From the IMG/VR virus record IMGVR_UViG_3300021255_002694: a DNA stretch of 64,000 nt, one strand, 5' to 3'. This DNA is from a virus. Lineage: Duplodnaviria; Caudoviricetes. The notes beneath the pieces are model-generated. The model was given only the letters and a program-made list of their open reading frames with translations, had not been told where the DNA came from and searched no databases. Positions 5,011 through 63,086 of this stretch are shown here, piece after piece; position 1 is the stretch's first letter, and each line of letters opens with the position of its first letter. The position numbers were made by a program, and so were the translations under genes.

Positions 5011-5042
5011 TAATTTTGCATGAAAAATATTTGGAAAAATGC

Positions 5043-5071
5043 TTGACAAAACAGTTAAAATGTGATATACT
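5043..5071 (+). promoter_or_regulatory. Consensus sigma-A early promoter, extended -10
   Basis: TTGACA-17-TATACT with TG. Confidence 0.9.
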
Positions 5072-5122
5072 ATATTTATAAGAGATAAGTATGACTTGAT
5101 TGTAAACTTGGAGGATTTACCT

Positions 5123-5530: not shown

Positions 5531-6103
5531 GTGAAACTAATGATAAGAGAAGATAGACTATCAATGTTGTCGGAAAGTGTCTTTTATAAGGCACTCCTTG
5601 AATTCCTCACGAAGGATACAGAGATAAAATACGCTGATGATTATATTGATAACTTTGATAAGTCGAAGAAACAGAGGTATGCAAAAGAATACCCGATCAG
5701 AGACATTAAAAATGACATTGCATCATTCATTGATGATTGGCTGAAAGAAATTAAAAGAGATTGTGATATATACTCTATGAAGAATAATCGTATGTCTGAT
5801 TCATATGGATTTTCTAATTATATTACTCTTTCATTTAATCGTCCGGCAGATCGTAGATTATACCAATTCTATCAAGATAACAGCGAAAAATATAATAATG
5901 TAAAATTTAGATTTTCAGAGCATGATCCTAAAAATGACACATCCGATATTGCCGATAGTGTGAACTTTGTCGGAAAGACGTTTAATCAGGCAGCAGATGA
6001 AATGAAGTGCAAAATTGAAAACTATGTAATTGATTTAAGATCAGCAGAAAAACAATATCTTAAAAAGCTAGATAAACAGGCAAAGAAAAAGAATCGGCGG
6101 TGA
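5531..6103 (+). CDS. Leader-bearing protein with YGxSNY…RFSEH motif (paralog of 21808..22362; possible nuclease fold)
   Basis: GTG start gives MKLMIRED; motifs shared with 21808. Confidence 0.7.
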   Translation: MKLMIREDRLSMLSESVFYKALLEFLTKDTEIKYADDYIDNFDKSKKQRYAKEYPIRDIKNDIASFIDDWLKEIKRDCDIYSMKNNRMSDSYGFSNYITLSFNRPADRRLYQFYQDNSEKYNNVKFRFSEHDPKNDTSDIADSVNFVGKTFNQAADEMKCKIENYVIDLRSAEKQYLKKLDKQAKKKNRR

Positions 6104-6108
6104 GCATA

Positions 6109-6393
6109 ATGATTATACTTGAAAATAAAACGATCGAAAAAGACATATTTGATTCTATAATCAGAACAGTTAAAACAAATTTCAATAAAAACAATTTCAG
6201 TTTTGATATTGATATCACTGATACTGTCAATATCTGGTGCGATAACGATAAAGATAAAACAGTGTTTATTCAAACACAGGATGAAGATTCATACGCAACA
6301 TTTACAAAGGATGATCTTGATAATGTTGATGAGGCGGATATAAAGGAGAGCATTGAATATCAGCTTAATGCAACCGGATCAGAGAATGAATAA
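6109..6393 (+). CDS. Acidic hypothetical protein (MIILEN leader)
   Basis: ORF 6100..6393, ATG at 6109. Confidence 0.65.
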   Translation: MIILENKTIEKDIFDSIIRTVKTNFNKNNFSFDIDITDTVNIWCDNDKDKTVFIQTQDEDSYATFTKDDLDNVDEADIKESIEYQLNATGSENE

Positions 6394-6402
6394 GATGCAA
6401 TG

Positions 6403-6442
6403 TAGAACTTACGTGAAAATTCCGTAAGTTCTATTTTTTTTT
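6403..6442 (+). terminator. Intrinsic terminator
   Basis: TAGAACTTACG / CGTAAGTTCTA stem followed by a T run. Confidence 0.85.
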
Positions 6443-6453
6443 ATAAAAACCAC

Positions 6454-6482
6454 TTGACATTTCATACAATATGTGATATACT
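6454..6482 (+). promoter_or_regulatory. Consensus sigma-A early promoter
   Basis: TTGACA-17-TATACT with TG. Confidence 0.9.
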
Positions 6483-6852
6483 ATATTTGTAAAATACTAC
6501 CAGAAAGGTGGAATCACATAAAAATGTTGTCATTTGCAAGCAAAAAGTGGACTGATTCTGAAAAAGAACATATCCGAAAAATGCAGGATGCGGTAGATGA
6601 ATCAAAAAAGATAAAAATTATGTACATTGCGACAGATGTTTCAACAGGAAATGTTTTATGTGAACTCAATAACATGCTTGATGTAATTAGCTGTATACAG
6701 GGATATGCAATAATGGTACTCGGAACACGTAATTACATCTTGAACGAGTTTTATTCAATGAATCATGTTACAAAGACTTATTCACATGAAAACACATCAT
6801 TTACGGTTGATGTAGAAGAACGTGTGTATATAGAGAACTGAGGTGCTTTAGC

Positions 6853-7269
6853 ATGACTGAGATTAAAAATGGAATCATTCGCTTCATGTTTGCCGGAAAT
6901 TCTATTTTCACAATAATTAAAGGCAATGAACATCATTCCTATAAAATTTATAGGAAAAAGACTGATGATGGTGTAAAAATTTATCATCTATATCTTAGAA
7001 AAGCAAATAAATGTACGTATAGCGGATACTTTAAGATTGAGGATAACAAACTGACATTCAAAAGAAGCTATAAGTACCGCTGTGATCATGCAGATGATGA
7101 TATTGCAGTTCTGCTTGATGTTGTTCACAACAGGAACAATCTTCCGGAAGATATTTCTGTGTATCACTCTGGAAGATGTGGTTGCTGTGGTCGCGTCCTG
7201 ACCGATCCAGAAGCTATTTCGCGTGGATTCGGACCAGAATGCTGGAAGAAAGTTAAAGATCATGTTTGA
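6853..7269 (+). CDS. DUF6011-like zinc-finger protein
   Basis: C-terminal GRCGCCGRVLTDPEAISRGFGPECW. Confidence 0.7.
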   Translation: MTEIKNGIIRFMFAGNSIFTIIKGNEHHSYKIYRKKTDDGVKIYHLYLRKANKCTYSGYFKIEDNKLTFKRSYKYRCDHADDDIAVLLDVVHNRNNLPEDISVYHSGRCGCCGRVLTDPEAISRGFGPECWKKVKDHV

Positions 7270-11000: not shown

Positions 11001-11023
11001 TGCAACTGAAAGAGGTTTTGCAA

Positions 11024-11575
11024 ATGGATAAAAAGATAAAAGATATGAGAAACGGGATATTATCTCTCCAAACGAGGCGTTTCGGAAACATGATGGAGAT
11101 AATTATAAGAGAACTGTACGGGCTTGAAGAGTGTAATGGATCATCTTGCAACTTGTATGATAGTAATAAAGGATATAAGATTGCCCTCGCTTTTTCAAGA
11201 GCATTACTTTTTGCAGAAGGAAACTTAAAAGTGAATCCGCTTGAAGCGTGTATATGCTCCACAATACACAAAAGGTCTATAAAATCGACTGATACTGGGA
11301 AGAAATATAACTGTGTATTTCAGCAACTAAAGCTGAAAAATTTTGACTACTTGTACTACGGTATATTGTTTAAGGATAAGGTTTTGATTTTCAAAGCACC
11401 GAGTTCAGACATACCACACATGCCATGCTTTTCAAACTTTCAGCACAGAGACAATAAAAATGAGTCTCAGTTTCACTTAGATCAAACATCTATTTTGTGG
11501 CATGTTGACAGATACTTAGATAGAGAACTGACCTATGAGGAAATATATGATCTTCTGAGTAAGCTGGGAAAGTGA
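11024..11575 (+). CDS. Restriction-endonuclease-like protein, apparently lacking PD-(D/E)xK catalytic residues
   Basis: TRRFG, QQ.K…FDYLYYG.LF.D, QH..N..E.QFH motifs recalled from an REase-like family; expected DL..D…IEVKFS reads NLYD…IALAFS. Confidence 0.5.
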   Translation: MDKKIKDMRNGILSLQTRRFGNMMEIIIRELYGLEECNGSSCNLYDSNKGYKIALAFSRALLFAEGNLKVNPLEACICSTIHKRSIKSTDTGKKYNCVFQQLKLKNFDYLYYGILFKDKVLIFKAPSSDIPHMPCFSNFQHRDNKNESQFHLDQTSILWHVDRYLDRELTYEEIYDLLSKLGK

Positions 11576-11897
11576 TTTTATGACAAAAGCATATTGGGGG
11601 AAGTTTTTAACACATGAATTTTGATATCAGTCTTAAAATGTGGAAAGTGATATTTAATCAATCCGGATATTGTATAGGTGCATTTGAATTTGATCTAGTT
11701 GATGATAACACTAAATTTGATGTTATTTACCAATCAGATAATAATTGTACCGCAGTAAACATTATTGCTGTAAACGAAACGATTGCAATGAATATGGCTA
11801 ATCACATTTATTATGGTGTCACAAGACATTCAGCATAATGCACAAAATTTACTTGTTTTATTTGTGAGCATTTTTCAGATATTTTTCTGAAAAATGC

Positions 11898-11926
11898 TTG
11901 ACTTTTATCTTGAAATATGTTATACT
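11898..11926 (+). promoter_or_regulatory. Consensus sigma-A early promoter with upstream inverted repeat
   Basis: TTGACT-17-TATACT; CATTTTTCAGA / TCTGAAAAATG inverted repeat immediately upstream. Confidence 0.88.
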
Positions 11927-11973
11927 ATATTTACAAGGTTAAGGAAAACAAAAGCGATAGTGAGGTACATATT

Positions 11974-46934: not shown

Positions 46935-46964
46935 TATCGGGACTAAATGTCCCGATATTTTTTT
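46935..46964 (+). terminator. Intrinsic terminator
   Basis: TATCGGGAC / GTCCCGATA followed by a T run. Confidence 0.85.
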
Positions 46965-46974
46965 GAAAAAATAC

Positions 46975-47003
46975 TTGACAAATCGCATGAAATATGGTAT
47001 ACT
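46975..47003 (+). promoter_or_regulatory. Consensus sigma-A early promoter
   Basis: TTGACA-17-TATACT with TG. Confidence 0.9.
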
Positions 47004-47093
47004 ATATTTAGATGGGTATGCAAAAAATATATCTGTATACAATTAAAAATATATGGAAATTTTAACTATATAATGTGAATTTGGAGGTAAATT

Positions 47094-53078: not shown

Positions 53079-54866
53079 ATGTCACAAACAACTCTATTAA
53101 GTTCTATAAATAGAACTACTGATTATCCTATTACTGTATCTTCTACAGCAGATAGTCATTGTGGTACTTTACAGTTAATTTTAGGTAGTGACTGGACTAA
53201 TCAAATGATACATGAACTTCCGGCAATAAATATATCTATTCTTACTGCGGATGGTTCTAAATTTCTATCATTTGATGTTAATATGTCTACAGTTAATGAA
53301 GAATTAAGAAATAAAGATAGATCACTTACTCCAACAGAACCATATTCTATTGCTGTTTATGATATTCCAAAAGATATTACTTTTTCTATAACTCCGCTTT
53401 TTGATCAATATGCTCTTAAAGCACATAATGATCTTATAAATGACGGCAATATAGAAATATTTGATACTTCTAATAAAGGAATTGTTGATACAGATTCAGA
53501 AAATTACGTATATAGACTTTGGACTACACCTACATCTACTTTTGATATTACTATTATATTTGATAATAGTAATGTTTCTTCTGGCGGTTCATCTGGCGGC
53601 GGTGGAGGTGGAGATACACCTACTGCGGCTGATATTTCTTATAGCAATACCACTTCTGGTTTATCAGCTACTAATGTTCAAGCAGCAATAGATGAAATTG
53701 ATAATGCAATAGATAATCTTCCAGAGCCTATGATATTCAAAGGTAGTCTTGGTACTGGCGGAACTATTGCAACATTACCAACAGCTTCTAATGATAATAA
53801 AGGATTTACTTATAAAGTAATTACTGCCGGAACATATGCAGGACAAACTGCTAAGATCGGAGATACTTTTATTTCTGACGGCACAGCTTGGGTTTTAATT
53901 CCATCAGGTGATGAACCAAGTGGAACAGTAACTAATGTTGCAGTTACAAGTACAGATGGAAGTGCAACAATAACAGGAAGTCCTATAACATCAAGTGGAA
54001 CTATTGATATTTCAGTTGTTACAGATTCAGCATTAAATGCAAATTCTACAAAACCAGTACAGAATAAAATTGTTACATCAGCAATCAATGAAAAACTTAA
54101 TATAGAAGACGCTGTTGGTAAAAATGTTACTGGTACAGAATATACTATTGACGGACAGACTGTTACTGCCGGAGACGGTGCTGAGATTTTTAATTCGTAT
54201 GATGGCAATTCACAGAATAAGGCTGCTGGACAGTGTTCTCATGCAGAAGGTGCGTATAATACTGTCACTGGTACATACGCCCATGTAGAGGGAATGGGAA
54301 ATACGGCATCTGGTGATGGCGCACATGCAGAAGGTTCTGGTGGAGTACGAGCAACAGGTACAGGCTCTCATGCAGAAGGTCAAGGAAACGTCGCTTCTGG
54401 TGTTAATGCCCATGCCGAGGGAGGCGGAACAACCGCATCTGCTATTTACTCACATGCAGAGGGATCGGGAACATCAGCATCCGGTCAAAACTCACATGCC
54501 GAAGGATCAGGAACAGTGGCTTCTGGTAATAGCGCTCATGCAGAGGGAGGTAGTTCGGTAGCATCAGGTGATAGCGCACATGCAGAAGGTAATTATACAA
54601 TCGCTGCATCGTCATATCAGCATGTCCAAGGTAAATGTAACGTCGCGGATGCAAACAACACTTACGCTTTTATAATCGGAAATGGTACTGCTGATAATGC
54701 TCGTCATAATGCATTTGCTATTGATTGGAATGGAAATATATATGTTAATAACTCTGCAACTGGTGTAAATGTAGAAACACTTTCTTCAATTCTAAATCCT
54801 ATTTCTGAATCTGAATACGATTCTTTAACTACAAAAGATAAACCTTTATATTTTATATATGATTAA
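53079..54866 (+). CDS. Tail fibre/spike with YadA-head-like 14-residue SHAEG repeats
   Basis: About 10 repeats of (S/A)HAEGxxTxASG; IIGNGT…NAFAIDWNGN; Gly-rich linker. Confidence 0.82.
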   Translation: MSQTTLLSSINRTTDYPITVSSTADSHCGTLQLILGSDWTNQMIHELPAINISILTADGSKFLSFDVNMSTVNEELRNKDRSLTPTEPYSIAVYDIPKDITFSITPLFDQYALKAHNDLINDGNIEIFDTSNKGIVDTDSENYVYRLWTTPTSTFDITIIFDNSNVSSGGSSGGGGGGDTPTAADISYSNTTSGLSATNVQAAIDEIDNAIDNLPEPMIFKGSLGTGGTIATLPTASNDNKGFTYKVITAGTYAGQTAKIGDTFISDGTAWVLIPSGDEPSGTVTNVAVTSTDGSATITGSPITSSGTIDISVVTDSALNANSTKPVQNKIVTSAINEKLNIEDAVGKNVTGTEYTIDGQTVTAGDGAEIFNSYDGNSQNKAAGQCSHAEGAYNTVTGTYAHVEGMGNTASGDGAHAEGSGGVRATGTGSHAEGQGNVASGVNAHAEGGGTTASAIYSHAEGSGTSASGQNSHAEGSGTVASGNSAHAEGGSSVASGDSAHAEGNYTIAASSYQHVQGKCNVADANNTYAFIIGNGTADNARHNAFAIDWNGNIYVNNSATGVNVETLSSILNPISESEYDSLTTKDKPLYFIYD

Positions 54867-54884: not shown

Positions 54885-57800
54885 ATGCTTAAAAGCATTG
54901 TTAATGGTGCTGAACATGATATTGTAAGTATTCCTATGAAAGGGAAGAATTTATCTTCATTTGATGCAATCACATATCTAAACGATGATTCCTATTATGT
55001 GTCTTACCGTATACTCAATTCGATACCAGAGGGTTCATATACATTGTCATATTTCGTTGATGTTGATCCTAGTGTGGATTCGCTTGCTGCATCCATCGGT
55101 GTCGGTTCAACGATATATGAGAAAGATATCAAAATTGTTAATAGCATTGATCCTGGATATATAAATATACCATTTTCAATAACAGATGCCGACGCTGGTA
55201 AAAATTTATTTGTGCGGTTTGTAAGAAGTGGATCAAAATTTACTGCAACAATCACCGTCACAAAAGTCATGCTAAACACAGGTTCAACTGCATTACCATA
55301 TGAACCATATGGATATCAAAATGGATGGGAAGTAAGAGATAATCAAAATAGACTTATATGGGGAAGAGAAGATGAACTTCAAACAACTACAGGAACTCTA
55401 CCATTTAAAGGATATGGATTAGATATTAAAGAATATAGTATAGACGGTAATATGGTTCAAGCGGCGGAAAAAGAATATTCTATTACTGGTACATCTCCTT
55501 TAGATTTTCAAAGTAATGGTTCTAATGCTACTATTTCTATTTCCGGAAATGAAACACAAGCATCTAATCAATCATATACTACTTCTTGTACTTCTCCATT
55601 ATCTTTTAATGCAGATGGAACTAATCTTACTGCATTATCTATGGATGGAAATATGAATCAAGCTAGTAGTCAACCTTATACTGTTTCTGGTACTTCACCG
55701 ATCAGTTTTATGAATAATGGTACTGCTATTGATTATACTGTTTCCGGAAATATGTCACAATCTGGTACTCCTACTCCTACATCTCCTATTACTCCACAAG
55801 AATGTGGAGAGAGAACTAATCAGCTTATACCTTATCCATATTATAGTGCAGATGGAGTATATGATGGGATTACATTCACTACAGATGGAAATAAGATAGT
55901 TGCTAATGGTACAACATCGACAGGATATAATTTCTATCTTTGGAGAGTTGATAAATTTCCGGCTGGAACATATACTCTCAGCGTGACTGGAACACATACA
56001 GGTGCTAGTATTTATGTAAGAGATGTTACAAATTCAACTACTATTGTAGGTATTTTCGGTGGTCAGACTGGTGATCGTCAAATATCATTTACGACAACAG
56101 AAGAATTGCAAGTATATGTTTATATAAATTCCAGCGGTACGGGAACTGTTGATTTTGACTGTTCTATAATGTTAAATGAGGGTTCAACGGCATTGCCATA
56201 TGAGCCAAATCTATATAAAGTACCTCTAACAATAGCCGGAAATACACAAAATATTTATATTAAAGAGCCATTAAGAAAAATTGGTGATTATTCTGATACT
56301 GTTAATTCAGATGGTAGTGTTACAAGAGTTATTAAGAAAATTGTATTGACAGGTGCGGAATCTGAGTGGTCTAGTGTTGGAGGTCAGGCACCATTTCTAT
56401 TAACTATATCCGGTTATTCTGAAATTTCAAAATCAGTTCCGTATTATATGAGTTCACATTTCAAGCCTATTGCATATGATGATCTATGGGGAACAAATGA
56501 TAACTTTATTGTGACATATCAAACTGGTTTTCGGTTTAAGTACAGTACGTTAGGTACTGATCTAAATGATTTTAAGACATGGCTTTCAACACAGTATGAA
56601 AATAATAATCCAATAACAGTTTGGTATGCACTTCAAATTCCACAAACAGATACAGCAACAGTACCAACAATAACACCAACATCAGGAAATAATACATTAT
56701 CAGTAGATACTACTTTAGCTCCATCTAATATTACAGTTACTTCTAATTCTTCTGTTTTTCCTGAAAATCCTATTACTCCTATTGAATGTGGTGTTCTAAG
56801 TGAAAATCTATTCGATAATAACCAGACCACAACGAATGAGAACGGTGCTGAAAGACCTGGTGTAGAACTTCCAGTCGGAACATACTCTATCTATAATACA
56901 TCAGGTCAAGCTGTGTATTATCGTATCGGTGATAGTGGAACTGGCGCACAAGTAAACAATGGTAATTCAAAAGCAAACATAGTAGCGAATGATACATTGT
57001 ATGTGTGGCAATATCCTAAAAAAGACGGTGTTATGGTTATTGAGGGTGCTACCGCACCGACTGAATATGAACCTTATGGAAAATATAAAATTCCAGTAAC
57101 AGTAGGTTCAACTACCAAAAATATATTTATAAATCAGCCACTTAGAAAAATAGGTAATTATAGTGATAGTATTGGTAGTGATGGTGTTGTTACAAGGAAT
57201 ATTAAGAAGTTGGTGCTTGATGGTACGGAGAACTGGTCATCATATAGCGAAGTTGTTTATTTACAAGACATAATTGATTATGCAAAAATTGATAATATTA
57301 TTTGCATGTGTACGCACTATGAGCCGCAAACAAATGTTGACGGAGTTGCTGAAACAGATACAGGGCATATAGCATTTGGTAAAAGTTCAAACTATAGACT
57401 TAACATTCATGATGCAAATATAAACAACGCAACAGATTATAAACTATTTCTTGCTGACGAATACTCAGCCGGTCATCCAGTAGAAGTCTGGTACATATTA
57501 GCAACACCAGATACAACAGAAACAACTACTATACCAACAATATCAACAGTAAATGGAGCAAATACTCTTACTACAGGAACTCCTATAACTCCATCTAATA
57601 TTACTATTTCTACTTCTTCTTCTGTCTATCCTAAGAATCCTATATATCCAGAAGAATGTGGAGATAGGACTGGTAATGTTCTTGATCTTGATGCATACCT
57701 TAAAAGAGATAATAACGGATATACAAAAAGCGGTAGCACTTATACTATCCCAATGCAAGCATCTTTGTTTGCAAATCCTTGGTATTTTTCCAATGAGGAT

Positions 57801-60800
57801 GTTCCGATAAGTATAAGTGGCACTATGCAAACATTAACTGGTACAAATATCCGAATTTATATTGTAAAACGTGATGGAGCTGTTTCTGGTTCTATTGCAC
57901 TAGGCGGAACTGGAAATGTAACAAAGACAGAAAACAGGTTAGGTGCCGGAATAAAGTTCGATTATACCTCTATTGGAACATGCACTGTATCTAACCTTAT
58001 GGTCAATTTCGGATCAACTGCACTTCCTTATGAACCATATGGATATAAAATACCAGTAACAATAGGTAGCAATACTAATTATATCTATACTAAAGAACCT
58101 ATTAGAAAAATTGGTAATTATGCTGATGTGGTTAATAGTGATGGTAGTATTACTAGATATATTAAGAAGATCGAGTTAAATGGAACAGAAAATATCATTC
58201 TTGGTTCTCCACAATCCGGAGGAAATGTATTTTCTATAACTGATCAAGATACAATAACAAGCAATGGTTCGTATTCAATATCTAATTACTATCGAAACGT
58301 ATATGGTAATAGTGGCGAGTACACATACATTTACAATGGAAGGATTATCCTACTAGATAAAAGCCATAGTACAGTCACATCATTTAAACAGTGGTTATCT
58401 GATGAATACAATTCGGGTAATCCAGTATGTGTGTGGTATGTAATGCAAACTCCAACAGCAGAACAAACAACAATACCAACACTAACAACAGTAAATGGAA
58501 CAAATACAGCAACAATAGGAACTACTCTAGCCCCATCAAGTATTACTATAAATGCCACTTCTAAAGTATATCCTAATAATCCTATTATTCCTGAATTTTG
58601 TGGAGTTAGGACAGAGAATCTTATTGATGCTACGATGTATGACAATCTTGCAAAATCTGTAGCATATCTATCTATGCTAGTATCCGTTCCGATTGTAACA
58701 TTGACGTCACCAGAAGGACTATACACAAGAGTTGTTTGGACACAATCAATGAATCCTGATACAAGAATCCATGAAAGTAACTGGATAACATCTGGAAACA
58801 GTGCAACATTTGATCTTGCATCATATAGTGATGCTGATTGTTTTAAGATAGAGTTTCGCAATGTCGAATATTCAATTTTAACTGATGAAGATATTGCACG
58901 TAGATTCAATATCATGCTTAACACTGGTTCTACTGCACTTCCTTATGAACCATATGGATATAAAATATCTTTTAATAATAATGGAGAGAATTTGTTTGAT
59001 TGTGATAGAACAGATGGCATTATTGATAATTCGTATATCAGAAAATCAGACAGTGAAATCGTAACAGACACAGACTACTATATCAGTTATCCTATTTATG
59101 TTTCTGAGAATGTGACATATACATGGAGATTTGATAGTGACACAAGTACAACACATTCAGCACCTACTGTCGGATTTTATGATTCATTAGATAACATGAT
59201 AGGAACTGCACCGCATGGTAACGGACTAACATATTTTTCATTCACTACTCCAAATGGGTGTAAATACATTCGTGCGTCTGTTTATAAGCATAACAACTTT
59301 CAGAGAGAAGCAATGCTTAATCTCGGATCAACACCATTACCATATTCTCCATATCTAAATAAAACAACTCCTATATATCTTAGTGAAGTTCCTACTATAA
59401 GAAGAATTAAGAAATTGGTGTTGACAGGAGATGGAGAATATCAAAATTACTCATATGATGGTACTAACGGTGTCCGAATCTTGAATATGTTGAAAACAAC
59501 ATACAAAAGAGCAGATGGGTTATGCAATATTTGTAAAGTATCAACAGTCGCAGGTATACGTCATTGTTTATGGATAGGTTCTGGTGGTGGTGATCCTCAC
59601 TTGTATTTTATATCCATACTTTCAGATATGGGACTATCCGATGCATCTGAGTTTAAATCATGGGTTGCACAACAATATCAAAACGGTACTCCGGTTACAA
59701 TATGGTATGCACTTGCAAATCCGGAAACAGGAATAGTAAATGAACCATTAGCAAAAATAGGAAATTATGCAGATGAACTAACAGAAATATCTGTTCATAA
59801 TCTTTCTGCTCCATTATATGGTATTGGAGATTATAAAGATATTCTAAATCTTTCTACTGGTGTTTTGACTAGGAAGATTAGGAAATTGGTGTTGGACGGC
59901 GTAAACGATGGAGAATGGAAAAAATCTTCAACGAGAACAGGCTCATTCTATTTGAATGTTGGAGTGAACGCAATCACTTCTTTAGGCTTATGTGACCGTG
60001 CTGTTAATGTGGATACAATCAGTCAGTACGATTCCATTGGAAAAATGTTCGTTGAATCAAGCGGTTCATCAAAGTTGATAAACTTGTGGCTTTTCGATAC
60101 CAATATATCGCTTGATGATTTCAAAGCATTTCTCGCCGCCCAGTACGCAAACGGAACCCCAGTCACGGTCTGGTACGTGTTGAATACTCCTAAAACCGAA
60201 ACTGTCACAGTTCCAACAGGAATGACAGGAGAAATAGAAGGATATTTAACACAGATCAGTACACCAACTCCGGAACATCCAAGTATACCGAAATGGAATG
60301 GAAAAGAAGAAACTGGTGGTACATATGCAGTTACAGTTTATGATCTTCCTGAAATTCCTACAACTACAGGAAAAAATACTTTGACAGTAGATACAACTCT
60401 AGCACCATATGATGTAACTATAAATGGACATATAAGATACACATATTGGGGTAAAATACGTGAAGATGTTAGAAGTGGATTGGCTCAAACAAAATTCCCA
60501 GTTGGAACAATCTTATATGATAACGAAGATGCAACAACAGGAAGAGCATTTCAAGTTGTAGGATATGATAAACATTTTGATCCATCACTAACAGCACGAG
60601 GATTCACTCATAGTATGACATTGTGTCAGTTAAAACTATCCGGACCGTGGCAATATGACGCAATAGAAGCATTTTTATATACAACTGTTGAAATGCAACC
60701 TGGAACATATAAATTCAAAATACCTAACTATGATACAACATATGGCGGTAATAAAACATACTATTTTACTTCTACTGCAACCGTTCCAGTTGATAGTCAA

Positions 60801-61556
60801 ATTGTATTAAAATGGGATTATCAAAAACCACCTGCTTCTGTAACTGCATATGCTGGTCCAAATCCGCAAACAAATACAACAGCAATAACAGGATTTAACG
60901 CTTTAACACTTACAGAATGGGTTGAGGGTGAATCACCGGAAGCTATTGATTTAGGAACAATAAAACTAGCAAACAATGATCCAGACAGTGCATATGGTAA
61001 ACTAAATCATATTCAACGTGCAAGATATGGTTCAAACAATTATTATCAATCTGGTTTGAGACAGTTATTGAATACAGACCTTGCGGCAAATAACTGGTGG
61101 CATCCAGCTACTATATTTGATAGACCATATGCAAATAGAACAACAAATGGTTATTTAAGATCACTAAATGAAGATTTTATAAATGTACTAGCAACACCTG
61201 AAATTACTAATATAACAAATAATGTATTTGAATATCCATCATTAGACGGAAGAACATTTGCACTAAATACAGAATATAAGATAAATACAGATAAGGTATT
61301 CTTACTATCTCATACAGAAGTTGGTCTATCTTCATCACCGAATGTTGGAACAGTATTAGATTATTATAGTACACATAATACAAATAATGATAGAATAAAG
61401 TATAGAATTGATAATGGAAATGCTTATCATTGGTGGTTTAGAACTCCTTACCCGTCTTACGCTCACGATTTCCGGTATTGTAGCACTTCGGGTGCTTTGG
61501 ACGTCAGCCATGCTCTCAATTACCTGTGCGTCGCCCCCGCTCACATCATCCAGTAA
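54885..61556 (+). CDS. Large tail-fibre/adhesin with repeated modules and a C-terminal CLec (DUF6273-like) DGR target domain
   Basis: Repeated TGSTALPYEPYG / EPLRKIG.Y.D / VWY.L.TP modules; C-terminus RYGSNNY..S.LRQ.LN…DKVFLLS..EVG…WWFRTP…VAPA.II. Confidence 0.85.
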   Translation: MLKSIVNGAEHDIVSIPMKGKNLSSFDAITYLNDDSYYVSYRILNSIPEGSYTLSYFVDVDPSVDSLAASIGVGSTIYEKDIKIVNSIDPGYINIPFSITDADAGKNLFVRFVRSGSKFTATITVTKVMLNTGSTALPYEPYGYQNGWEVRDNQNRLIWGREDELQTTTGTLPFKGYGLDIKEYSIDGNMVQAAEKEYSITGTSPLDFQSNGSNATISISGNETQASNQSYTTSCTSPLSFNADGTNLTALSMDGNMNQASSQPYTVSGTSPISFMNNGTAIDYTVSGNMSQSGTPTPTSPITPQECGERTNQLIPYPYYSADGVYDGITFTTDGNKIVANGTTSTGYNFYLWRVDKFPAGTYTLSVTGTHTGASIYVRDVTNSTTIVGIFGGQTGDRQISFTTTEELQVYVYINSSGTGTVDFDCSIMLNEGSTALPYEPNLYKVPLTIAGNTQNIYIKEPLRKIGDYSDTVNSDGSVTRVIKKIVLTGAESEWSSVGGQAPFLLTISGYSEISKSVPYYMSSHFKPIAYDDLWGTNDNFIVTYQTGFRFKYSTLGTDLNDFKTWLSTQYENNNPITVWYALQIPQTDTATVPTITPTSGNNTLSVDTTLAPSNITVTSNSSVFPENPITPIECGVLSENLFDNNQTTTNENGAERPGVELPVGTYSIYNTSGQAVYYRIGDSGTGAQVNNGNSKANIVANDTLYVWQYPKKDGVMVIEGATAPTEYEPYGKYKIPVTVGSTTKNIFINQPLRKIGNYSDSIGSDGVVTRNIKKLVLDGTENWSSYSEVVYLQDIIDYAKIDNIICMCTHYEPQTNVDGVAETDTGHIAFGKSSNYRLNIHDANINNATDYKLFLADEYSAGHPVEVWYILATPDTTETTTIPTISTVNGANTLTTGTPITPSNITISTSSSVYPKNPIYPEECGDRTGNVLDLDAYLKRDNNGYTKSGSTYTIPMQASLFANPWYFSNEDVPISISGTMQTLTGTNIRIYIVKRDGAVSGSIALGGTGNVTKTENRLGAGIKFDYTSIGTCTVSNLMVNFGSTALPYEPYGYKIPVTIGSNTNYIYTKEPIRKIGNYADVVNSDGSITRYIKKIELNGTENIILGSPQSGGNVFSITDQDTITSNGSYSISNYYRNVYGNSGEYTYIYNGRIILLDKSHSTVTSFKQWLSDEYNSGNPVCVWYVMQTPTAEQTTIPTLTTVNGTNTATIGTTLAPSSITINATSKVYPNNPIIPEFCGVRTENLIDATMYDNLAKSVAYLSMLVSVPIVTLTSPEGLYTRVVWTQSMNPDTRIHESNWITSGNSATFDLASYSDADCFKIEFRNVEYSILTDEDIARRFNIMLNTGSTALPYEPYGYKISFNNNGENLFDCDRTDGIIDNSYIRKSDSEIVTDTDYYISYPIYVSENVTYTWRFDSDTSTTHSAPTVGFYDSLDNMIGTAPHGNGLTYFSFTTPNGCKYIRASVYKHNNFQREAMLNLGSTPLPYSPYLNKTTPIYLSEVPTIRRIKKLVLTGDGEYQNYSYDGTNGVRILNMLKTTYKRADGLCNICKVSTVAGIRHCLWIGSGGGDPHLYFISILSDMGLSDASEFKSWVAQQYQNGTPVTIWYALANPETGIVNEPLAKIGNYADELTEISVHNLSAPLYGIGDYKDILNLSTGVLTRKIRKLVLDGVNDGEWKKSSTRTGSFYLNVGVNAITSLGLCDRAVNVDTISQYDSIGKMFVESSGSSKLINLWLFDTNISLDDFKAFLAAQYANGTPVTVWYVLNTPKTETVTVPTGMTGEIEGYLTQISTPTPEHPSIPKWNGKEETGGTYAVTVYDLPEIPTTTGKNTLTVDTTLAPYDVTINGHIRYTYWGKIREDVRSGLAQTKFPVGTILYDNEDATTGRAFQVVGYDKHFDPSLTARGFTHSMTLCQLKLSGPWQYDAIEAFLYTTVEMQPGTYKFKIPNYDTTYGGNKTYYFTSTATVPVDSQIVLKWDYQKPPASVTAYAGPNPQTNTTAITGFNALTLTEWVEGESPEAIDLGTIKLANNDPDSAYGKLNHIQRARYGSNNYYQSGLRQLLNTDLAANNWWHPATIFDRPYANRTTNGYLRSLNEDFINVLATPEITNITNNVFEYPSLDGRTFALNTEYKINTDKVFLLSHTEVGLSSSPNVGTVLDYYSTHNTNNDRIKYRIDNGNAYHWWFRTPYPSYAHDFRYCSTSGALDVSHALNYLCVAPAHIIQ
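61431..61556 (+). repeat. Putative DGR variable region (VR)
   Basis: Abrupt GC rise; variable positions are NNC/NNT codons (TAC, CAC, GAT, TTC, AGC, GAC, GTC, CAT, CTC…) as expected from AAC/AAT templates; ends in GC-rich GTCGCCCCCGC. Confidence 0.75.
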
Positions 61557-61557
61557 T

Positions 61558-61599
61558 CGCGTAATCGCCGTCCGTTAGGGCGGCTTACGCGAAGCGTAA
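61558..61599 (+). promoter_or_regulatory. DGR target-recognition-like hairpins
   Basis: GCCGTCC-GTTA-GGGCGGC (61567-84) and TTACGC-GAA-GCGTAA (61585-99) directly after the VR stop. Confidence 0.7.
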
Positions 61600-61628
61600 A
61601 ATACAAAAAAGAAAGGTAATAAAAATAT

Positions 61629-61703
61629 ATGTCAGTTCCAGTATTTAAAAGAACAGAAAATAAACTCCAAGCATTAAAAGATACAATTACAATGACTTCA
61701 TAA
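61629..61703 (+). pseudogene. avd: Truncated Avd (DGR accessory protein) N-terminal stub
   Basis: SD GAAAGG then MSVPVFKRTENKLQALKDTITMTS*, resembling the MSV.k.kR.e.kl start of Bacillota-phage Avd proteins, in the canonical position after the target. Confidence 0.6.
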
Positions 61704-61707
61704 AAAA

Positions 61708-61723
61708 TGTTCCATGTGGAACA
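61708..61723. promoter_or_regulatory. parS-like palindrome
   Basis: TGTTCCATGTGGAACA, one mismatch to the parS palindrome TGTTCCACGTGGAACA, extended by AAAA/TTTT. Confidence 0.6.
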
Positions 61724-61778
61724 TTTTACAGATTATATAAACAATAAATAATCAAAAATATAATACACAATTACTTTA

Positions 61779-61808
61779 TCCATAGTAGTCTGAAATGGCT
61801 ACTATGGA
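61779..61808 (+). promoter_or_regulatory. Hairpin upstream of 61844
   Basis: TCCATAGTAGTC / GGCTACTATGGA. Confidence 0.65.
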
Positions 61809-61843
61809 AGATTTTGAAATTTAAGTAGAAAGGTTGATATATT

Positions 61844-62161
61844 ATGGTAAAGAAAGTAAACAGAAATGAGTCTATTGGCTATAAACGCAGATCAAGAAGA
61901 ATGAATGAGAGTAATGGTACTATAAACGATCTTGAATTTTATATAGCACAAATTCATGATACCGCCGATGAAATAGCTAGATTATCAGATCATGCTACAG
62001 ATATTGTTAATAATTATCAAGAAATTGAAGATGATTCCAGAGAACTAAGAAGAACAGAAAACGATCTTTTAGGGTTTGTAAAAGAGTTACAAATGTGGAA
62101 AGAAGGATTTGCAAATTATATCGGTCAAATGGAAGAATTGGTTGACAACGTACTGCTGTAA
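61844..62161 (+). CDS. Coiled-coil protein with basic leader containing two xNES sites
   Basis: MVKKVNRNES…RRSRRMNES. Confidence 0.72.
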   Translation: MVKKVNRNESIGYKRRSRRMNESNGTINDLEFYIAQIHDTADEIARLSDHATDIVNNYQEIEDDSRELRRTENDLLGFVKELQMWKEGFANYIGQMEELVDNVLL

Positions 62162-62172
62162 AAATATAAAAC

Positions 62173-62218
62173 AAAAACCACCTAAGTATTAAGTTACTTA
62201 GGTGGTTTTTATTTTTTT
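62173..62218. terminator. Bidirectional terminator between convergent blocks
   Basis: AAAAACCACCTAAGTA / TACTTAGGTGGTTTTT with A and T tails. Confidence 0.9.
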
Positions 62219-62759: not shown

Positions 62760-63086
62760 TTAATCACCTTCCTCACTGTTCGGATAAATGCACTCGACAG
62801 TACACTGATAAATGACTTCGGTGTCCCAGCTTGTAGCACGGAAACCGTTATCAATTTCCTTAAACTTAGGCGGTTCAGTATATCCGAGATCACGGTATAC
62901 TTCTTCGTACTCATTGACATACTTTTTGTATGCCTTAGATACAAACTCAGATGCTTTTGCAAGAGCCGCATCAAGGCTTACAAAATATCCGGAATCAGTA
63001 AGCATTCTTTTACACAAATGATTGTTCCAACTGTCAGTAAAATGTTCACTGATAATATAGATCGGATTATCTTTCATATATAACAC
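62760..63086 (-). CDS. Hypothetical protein (true start probably ~63077)
   Basis: SD GGAGG upstream. Confidence 0.7.
   Translation of the reverse strand: MLYMKDNPIYIISEHFTDSWNNHLCKRMLTDSGYFVSLDAALAKASEFVSKAYKKYVNEYEEVYRDLGYTEPPKFKEIDNGFRATSWDTEVIYQCTVECIYPNSEEGD

Follow-up and report, generated by a model that had tools for sequence, protein, structure and literature searches.

An orphaned retroelement target in a rumen jumbo phage: probable loss of a diversity-generating cassette through a single 1.7-kb deletion

Described counterparts of the locus considered here include diversity-generating retroelements (DGRs) with two kinds of target. In the DGR of phage BPP-1, the hairpin of the target follows a rule of stem structure and loop sequence, with a loop consensus of GRNA (PMC3240598). 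In a second kind, the variable region (VR) sits at the C-terminus of a DUF6273 domain, for which a C-type-lectin-like (C-lec-like) fold has been reported (PMC11792537, PMC10743442). We analyzed a 64,000-nt stretch of DNA, hereafter the window, from the virus record IMGVR_UViG_3300021255_002694, in which a tail-fibre-like gene ends in a DUF6273 domain carrying a VR. Judged from alignments to related phages, this locus is very probably a decayed DGR in a rumen phage of ~320 kb, the cassette having been lost by a single 1.7-kb deletion that took away the template repeat (TR), most of the accessory gene avd and all but the end of the reverse transcriptase (RT) gene. The elements from which this reading is built are listed below in window coordinates.

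54885–61556, plus strand: tail-fibre-like gene of 2223 aa, taken from the open reading frame (ORF) list and its translation, with internal repeat modules of ~870–960 nt and a DUF6273 module at the C-terminus.
61011–61553, plus strand: DUF6273 domain (C-type-lectin-like DGR target domain), Pfam PF19789 on residues 194–373 of the fragment 1850–2223.
61449–61546, plus strand: VR of ~98 nt, now without a cognate TR, placed by gapless alignment to the TRs of relatives L021 and L016.
61530–61546, plus strand: GC-rich 3′ end of the VR, GTCGCCCCCGCTCACAT, resembling by its position an initiation of mutagenic homing (IMH) element and identical in the VRs of the window and of relatives L004 and L021.
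61557–61592, plus strand: target hairpin or cruciform element, with an outer 7-bp stem, a 2-nt bulge, an inner 7-bp GC stem and a GTTA loop.
61629–61703, plus strand: avd remnant, recognized by homology to the Avd proteins of relatives and comprising a ribosome site, start codon, codons 1–24 and a TAA made by the junction.
61700–61702, no strand: deletion junction with a 3-nt microhomology, ATA; homology on the left ends at 61702 and homology on the right begins at 61699/61700.
61700–61747, plus strand: final 15 codons and the stop of the RT reading frame, reading IKNVPCGTFYRLYKQ and matching the C-terminus of RT P0075 (..NYIKNVPCGTIYKRI).

Relatives with an intact cassette, retrieved by searches with the C-terminal domain, Avd and an RT profile, show what the locus is likely to have looked like before the deletion. 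Seven contigs (L003, L013, L015, L016, L017, L019 and L021) carry a DUF6273 target, a hairpin, avd (138–142 aa), a TR and an RVT_1-type RT (325–355 aa). Four of them, L016, L017, L019 and L021, show synteny with the window on either side of the locus and share the same run of small minus-strand genes downstream; their cassettes, with an avd of 139 aa and an RT of 351–355 aa, are located exactly at the junction in the window. L021 is 93–96% identical to the window. Mismatches between TR and VR fall at TR adenines in 12 of 12 cases for L003, 18 of 18 for L015, 17 of 17 for L013, 18 of 18 for L021 and 16 of 17 for L016, or 81/82 when these five relatives are pooled. Such adenine-confined mismatches are the canonical DGR signature and, read from these alignments, mark the family as a working DGR type. 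The Avd of L003 (P0003) matches the profiles NF033474 (E 1e-6) and bAvd PF22296 (E 4e-4) weakly, both below the curated cut-offs. The Avd family is well populated, and the position of the gene between VR and TR, seen in the relatives for which the locus was read, supports the assignment of the relatives' proteins as putative Avd.

Alignment of the window with L021 places the boundaries of the missing segment to within a few nucleotides. Window positions 60864–61702 correspond to L021 1775–2612 at 92.9% identity, and window positions 61695–61748 to L021 4329–4380; the intervening block of L021 that the window does not have is 1721 nt long and holds avd codons 25–139, the TR and nearly all of a 355-aa RT. 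The left edge of homology reads ..ACTTCATA and the right edge ATAAAAAATG.., and direct comparison with syntenic L016, L017, L019 and L021 shows both the cassette deletion and its endpoints, the first of two alternatives offered by an initial annotation made from the letters of the window alone. That annotation had pointed to position 61703 as the place to compare related phages; homology to them stops at 61702 and resumes at ~61700, with the cassette in between.

On the left of the junction, avd codons 1–24 span 61629–61700 and encode the peptide MSVPVFKRTENKLQALKDTITMTS, followed by a stop. This stub is identical to residues 1–24 of the full-length Avd proteins P0015 and P0012 at 19 of 24 positions (79%; tblastn E 7e-9), in keeping with its initial description as a 24-codon ORF resembling an Avd N-terminus. 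Full-length avd continues beyond the end point of the stub in L016, L019 and L021 and in Logan contigs from X2 and X3, two sequencing runs other than the source run. The X3 contig proceeds from 61702 through avd as ..MTSYLINMCENEK, and the X2 contig agrees with the window as far as 61702 and, after 394 other letters, repeats 61450–61499 and continues as the AAC-rich AACAACAACAATGCTAACAAC.., which is a TR. Contigs of both runs come in from the RT side at 61699/61700. The RT tail on the right of the junction is out of frame with the stub, which is why the stub stops at once. The abrupt stop had been noticed initially and is real; the RT tail at 61700–61747, with a palindrome at 61704–61727 inside it, had gone unrecognized.

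The repeats inherent in a VR/TR pair can mislead assemblers, and a cassette present in the phage might therefore have been collapsed out of the contig. We regard this as extremely improbable. Three independent assemblies agree at every base: ENA, JGI and a Logan contig from the source run (61541–61795) all have the same junction, the Logan contig spanning it without a branch at full depth (63.5), and a diverged contig from another animal carries the same junction. The junction is not an assembly artefact. A different origin, by recombination with a DGR-free relative through a TTCA microhomology, was considered and rejected, because it predicts an extra A that is absent from the window.

The best-supported course of events starts from an ancestor ordered as the relatives are, with fibre-DUF6273 (VR), hairpin, avd, TR and RT in succession. 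A single 1.7-kb deletion, with a 3-nt microhomology at 61700–61702, then took avd codons 25–139, the TR and all of the RT except its last 15 codons. It left behind an intact fibre gene, one receptor-binding variant in the VR that is presumably fixed, the unchanged cis targeting elements and the 24-codon avd stub. Such a phage would presumably be unable to diversify its VR alone, and this determinant of tropism would stay fixed unless the functions were supplied from outside.

The VR itself retains the imprint of a DGR. Over 61449–61517 (69 nt) it differs from the TR of L021 at 15 positions, 14 of which are TR adenines (Fisher 1.6e-7). The following 12 nt, 61518–61529, represent a different TR variant, common to the window and L004 (a 118-kb contig that is 88% identical to the window across 60132–61613), and no TR of this variant was found among those recovered from the relatives. 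Between the VRs of the window and L004 there are 21 differences, of which 15 are in TR-adenine columns (p 3e-5). Homology to the TRs extends as far as CACAT, and a GAT in the TRs corresponds to GCT in the VRs. The stretch homologous to the TRs of the closest relatives, 61449–61546, is narrower than the 61431–61556 first proposed for the VR. Taken together, the alignments show that the VR of the window is of DGR origin. The VR can be described as lying at the C-terminus of a C-lec-type domain and varying at AAY-derived codons, because DUF6273 matches and the VR differences of the relatives concentrate in TR-adenine columns. All three of the points on which the initial annotation had staked its proposal come out in its favour: relatives contain a TR-like sequence, VR variation among them affects TR-adenine positions, and the stub is unmistakably Avd.

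The domain that carries the VR is recognized with confidence, and its fold is assigned from the literature. The 2223-aa ORF is real and ends, as first described, in a DUF6273-type segment, with a stop codon (TAA) at 61554–61556; the match of its C-terminus to PF19789 (E 9.9e-18) scores 65 bits, above the gathering cut-off of 23.5. An AlphaFold2 model of the C-terminal 344 aa, built from 18 sequences, is poor (mean pLDDT, the predicted local distance difference test score, of 50, with the DUF6273 part below 50), so that the C-lec-like fold of this DUF6273 rests on literature. The sharp increase in GC content reported initially is also present: GC climbs from about 0.25–0.30 to 0.55–0.58 over 61450–61599, against an average of ~0.34 (33.8%) for the window.

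Just past the fibre stop codon, the minimum-energy fold, calculated as RNA or as DNA, is a single composite hairpin (61557–61592) whose outer stem is CGCGTAA/TTACGCG. The DNA fold has an energy of −15.4 kcal/mol (z −3.6), which was equaled by none of 200 shuffled sequences. Two smaller hairpins, GCCGTCC-GTTA-GGGCGGC and TTACGC-GAA-GCGTAA, can be drawn in the same region, and it was as two tight hairpins that the element was first described; both are drawable, but the best and conserved fold is the one composite hairpin. In L016 the composite hairpin is retained and the GAA-loop hairpin is weakened, and we therefore do not treat the GAA-triloop hairpin as a conserved element in its own right. 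These folds are single-sequence predictions; RNAalifold, applied to a poor MAFFT alignment of the post-VR regions, gave the inner hairpin only. All of the relatives likewise have a GC-rich hairpin directly past the stop codon, with stem sequences that vary and a 4-nt loop of GTCA, GTGA or GTTA (GTNA). A GTNA loop on varying stems fits the BPP-1 rule of stem structure plus loop sequence, although the loop is not GRNA. The window has the arrangement expected of a DGR target site, in which the GC-rich 3′ end of the VR precedes a hairpin that is also GC-rich and has a loop of 4 nt. Compared with the DGR-containing L021, the VR 3′ end and hairpin are the same apart from position 61580, where a G gives a G·T pair in place of A·T.

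Two important questions to address are (i) whether the missing functions are encoded elsewhere in the phage and (ii) whether the VR, once separated from its cassette, has remained unchanged. For the first question, an adenine-tolerant scan of both strands of the window found no TR (best non-self match 48/60), and tblastn with the relatives' proteins found nothing of RT or Avd in the window besides the avd stub and the 15-residue RT tail, in line with the absence of TR and RT from the window noted at the outset. A further 8 kb beyond the window, read from the 323,500-bp ENA contig L001, contains no TR, RT or full avd, and TR-pattern scans of IMG/VR and JGI metagenomes returned only the VR of L004. 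Of the components of a complete DGR, then, the RT gene is represented by the last 15 codons of its frame and avd by codons 1–24, and a TR differing from the VR only at adenines was found neither in the window nor in the part of L001 that was read nor in the collection scans. TR and RT are thus lacking near the VR. The locus is a DGR target site; judged as a complete DGR, it falls short in all three of RT, TR and Avd.

A second DGR at another place in the ~320-kb genome might supply TR, RT and Avd to a target that is not adjacent to it. Non-adjacent targets within ~50 kb are known for phage-associated DGRs (PMC5758913), and most of this genome is unread. The avd stub shows, however, that a cassette sat at this very locus, and the collection scans gave no TR. 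In addition, none of the best 120 clusters of the RT-profile search maps to the phage's 323.5-kb contig, although other proteins of that contig are indexed with its length of 323,500 bp; the longest contig among the 120 clusters, at 313,435 bp, belongs to a DGR-containing sibling; the 118-kb contig of L004 has no RVT_1 match either. Any paralogous cassette capable of acting on this VR should have surfaced in the best 120 RT clusters; a second cassette is unlikely, with a small doubt left, and we consider the presence of a second DGR to be very unlikely overall.

With regard to the second question, a single VR accounts for ~91% of depth in the Logan contigs of the source run (contigs rather than reads). 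Beside it is one discrete minor allele (depth 5.8 versus 59.4), which has 38 differences plus 2 indels. Both lead into one junction contig with a depth of 63.5. A ~93%-identical contig from another animal, X4, is colinear across 61702 and has yet another VR. Association of one junction with several VRs suggests either that the VR changed after the deletion or that recombination shuffled VR and junction.

One way in which the VR could have changed is that the phages with the deletion are orphaned yet active, their VR being rewritten in trans when a DGR-containing relative co-infects the same cell. We hold this to be unlikely, though by no means negligible. The VR 3′ end and hairpin match those of L021 save for the one G·T/A·T change, and in BPP-1 the IMH and hairpin suffice as a target, and a plasmid donor supports retrohoming into a prophage that lacks avd-TR-brt (PMC3240598; PMC5758913). 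The same junction occurs with three different VRs (the major allele of the window, the minor allele of the source sample and X4), and DGR-containing relatives are present in other rumen samples. Set against this, no such relative was seen in the source run, the VR block 61518–61529 fits no TR recovered, and the linkages of VR to junction were taken from Logan contigs instead of individual reads. Further differences of the minor allele, at 61286 and 61400, lie beyond the TR-homologous stretch, which fits a strain difference or homologous recombination equally well. Rewriting in trans is mechanistically sound and, for this locus, unproven; by analogy with BPP-1 it might operate here, and we would put little weight on it. 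Carried one step further, the cassette-deleted phages may conceivably be a lineage that shed avd-TR-RT, retained a fully competent acceptor site and relies on the DGR of co-infecting relatives to rewrite its VR. Such a lineage, doubtful as we consider it, would explain how one junction comes with at least three VR alleles in two animals, and it would draw on its relatives' diversification machinery while carrying none itself.

The decay of a local DGR by a single deletion thus remains our preferred reading, and three observations weigh against it in its simplest form. First, one junction is apparently linked to several VR alleles, which is awkward for a strictly frozen VR. Second, ~250 kb of the genome were not read directly, and a distant RT ranked below the best 120 could remain there. 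Third, the right end of the deletion lies within 3 nt of the point where the DGR-free phages L022–L024 rejoin the common backbone, a match that a random deletion does not predict.

The third point leads to a further element, which marks the right boundary of several alleles.

61704–61727, no strand: AT-rich palindrome inside the RT-tail frame, with 11-nt arms AAAATGTTCCA and TGGAACATTTT and a 2-nt centre.

As an exact match the palindrome is unique in the window, and it is kept in DGR-containing, cassette-deleted and DGR-free alleles alike (L016 ~11022–11045; L022 ~868–892). In the DGR-containing phages it encodes part of the RT tail, and in DGR-free phages it is non-coding and lies past the fibre stop. 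In L022–L024 the fibre ends at the equivalent of window position 60435 (..TVKGHIKPVQ, then stop) and joins the common backbone at window position 61700; these phages have neither the DUF6273 module nor a DGR, the DNA of 61700–61747 follows their fibre stop codon, and that stop codon is the same TAA that terminates the avd stub of the window. L004 retains the VR and hairpin and lacks even the avd stub, its deletion beginning just short of the avd start and ending in the middle of the palindrome. Three different alleles thus have their right boundary at the left edge of the palindrome. We would guess that a recombination hot spot adjoins the palindrome and that the whole DUF6273 and DGR module has repeatedly been gained or lost there. 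A role for the palindrome as a classical terminator was rejected; the real bidirectional terminator is at 62173–62210.

Between the palindrome and this terminator lies an indel polymorphism (window 61745–62173) that contains a 105-aa ORF at 61844–62161. The ORF is present in the window and in L022–L024 and absent from L016, L019, L021 and the X2 contig, and in the alleles without it the bidirectional terminator comes immediately after the RT stop. No relative of the 105-aa protein was found in IMG/VR, and a 108-aa protein encoded at 62760–63086 has no exact match on record.

Several other features of the window and its relatives were recorded. Within the fibre gene, 55241–60418 contains several diverged copies of the ~870–960-nt module, with recurring peptides ..GSTALPYEPYGYK.. 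and ..TLxVDTTLAPSxIT..; the fibre of the DGR-free relatives terminates directly after one such recurring motif. In a 595-aa ORF upstream of the fibre, eight 42-nt tandem units (54222–54590) encode a ..SGxxxHAEG.. repeat. Eight promoter-like repeats of ~64 nt are distributed over 5020–47015 (for example 5020–5083, 11875–11938 and 46952–47015), each made up of TTGACA, a 17-nt spacer, an extended −10 element (TGnTATACT) and a conserved ATATTT tail. Among the DGR-containing relatives, L019 (6562–9094 and 16529–17779) has two tandem DUF6273 target genes, each followed by its own hairpin set, and an IS605 OrfB/TnpB-like gene 5 kb downstream. L016 has a GIY-YIG/NUMOD-type homing-endonuclease-like ORF with faint Pfam hits (6044–6931) between fibre genes, just upstream of the DUF6273 target.

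The phage that bears the locus is a jumbo phage with a genome of roughly 320 kb. L001 and an 11.8-kb JGI contig, L002, are 100% identical to the window over their overlap, and the 105-aa protein encoded at 61844–62161 is recorded on both. L001 begins at window position 54886, inside the fibre gene, and the window reaches 54.9 kb further upstream, which suggests a circularly permuted or differently opened assembly of one genome. A look-up of sequencing runs puts the phage in metagenomes of ruminant gut and rumen, the source run being from sheep rumen, and the GenBank phage collection gave no DNA match.

The locus offers a clean natural example of DGR decay, with exact breakpoints, cis elements still in place and intact alleles in close relatives. 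Rumen jumbo phages carry three co-circulating allelic states: (i) a full DGR, (ii) a deleted cassette with the VR kept and (iii) no DUF6273/DGR module. Their co-circulation suggests that these phages can do without hypermutation of the receptor-binding tip and lose it repeatedly. The deletion phages and their DGR-containing relatives also form a natural recipient–donor pair for retrohoming in trans between co-infecting phages, a process shown so far only with engineered BPP-1 constructs.

How, then, does this locus compare with known systems? Like the BPP-1 DGR, it has a VR at the C-terminus of a receptor-binding protein and a GC-rich VR 3′ end followed, a few nucleotides past the stop codon, by a GC-rich hairpin with a 4-nt loop; the gene order of target, avd, TR and RT is also shared, here in the relatives and presumably in the ancestor. 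It differs from BPP-1 in its target domain (DUF6273 rather than Mtd), in its loop (GTTA, GTCA or GTGA versus the reported GRNA consensus), in the composite nature of the hairpin, which has two stems and a bulge, and in residing in a ~320-kb jumbo phage. The window is a natural counterpart of the laboratory recipient BPP-1 ΔATR, from which avd-TR-brt was deleted (Guo et al. 2011, PMC3240598), except that the deletion here arose naturally and spared 24 codons of avd and 15 of the RT. Remote DGR targets (Wu et al. 2018, PMC5758913) similarly consist of a VR and cis elements without an adjacent RT, but they have a cognate TR elsewhere in the genome, whereas none was found for this VR, and the avd stub points to local loss rather than to a dispersed target. 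The locus also resembles the DUF6273-target DGRs of phages of gut bacteria, namely Faecalibacterium prophages (PMC11792537) and 'tentaclin' phages (PMC10743442), in which the VR is likewise at the C-terminal end of DUF6273; complete cassettes of this type are carried by the relatives L003, L013, L015, L016, L019 and L021. Unlike in those DGRs, the DUF6273 of the window is fused to a repeat-rich fibre of 2223 aa and the cassette is gone. The DUF6273-type DGR target is thus already known, and this locus is a decayed copy of a known system.

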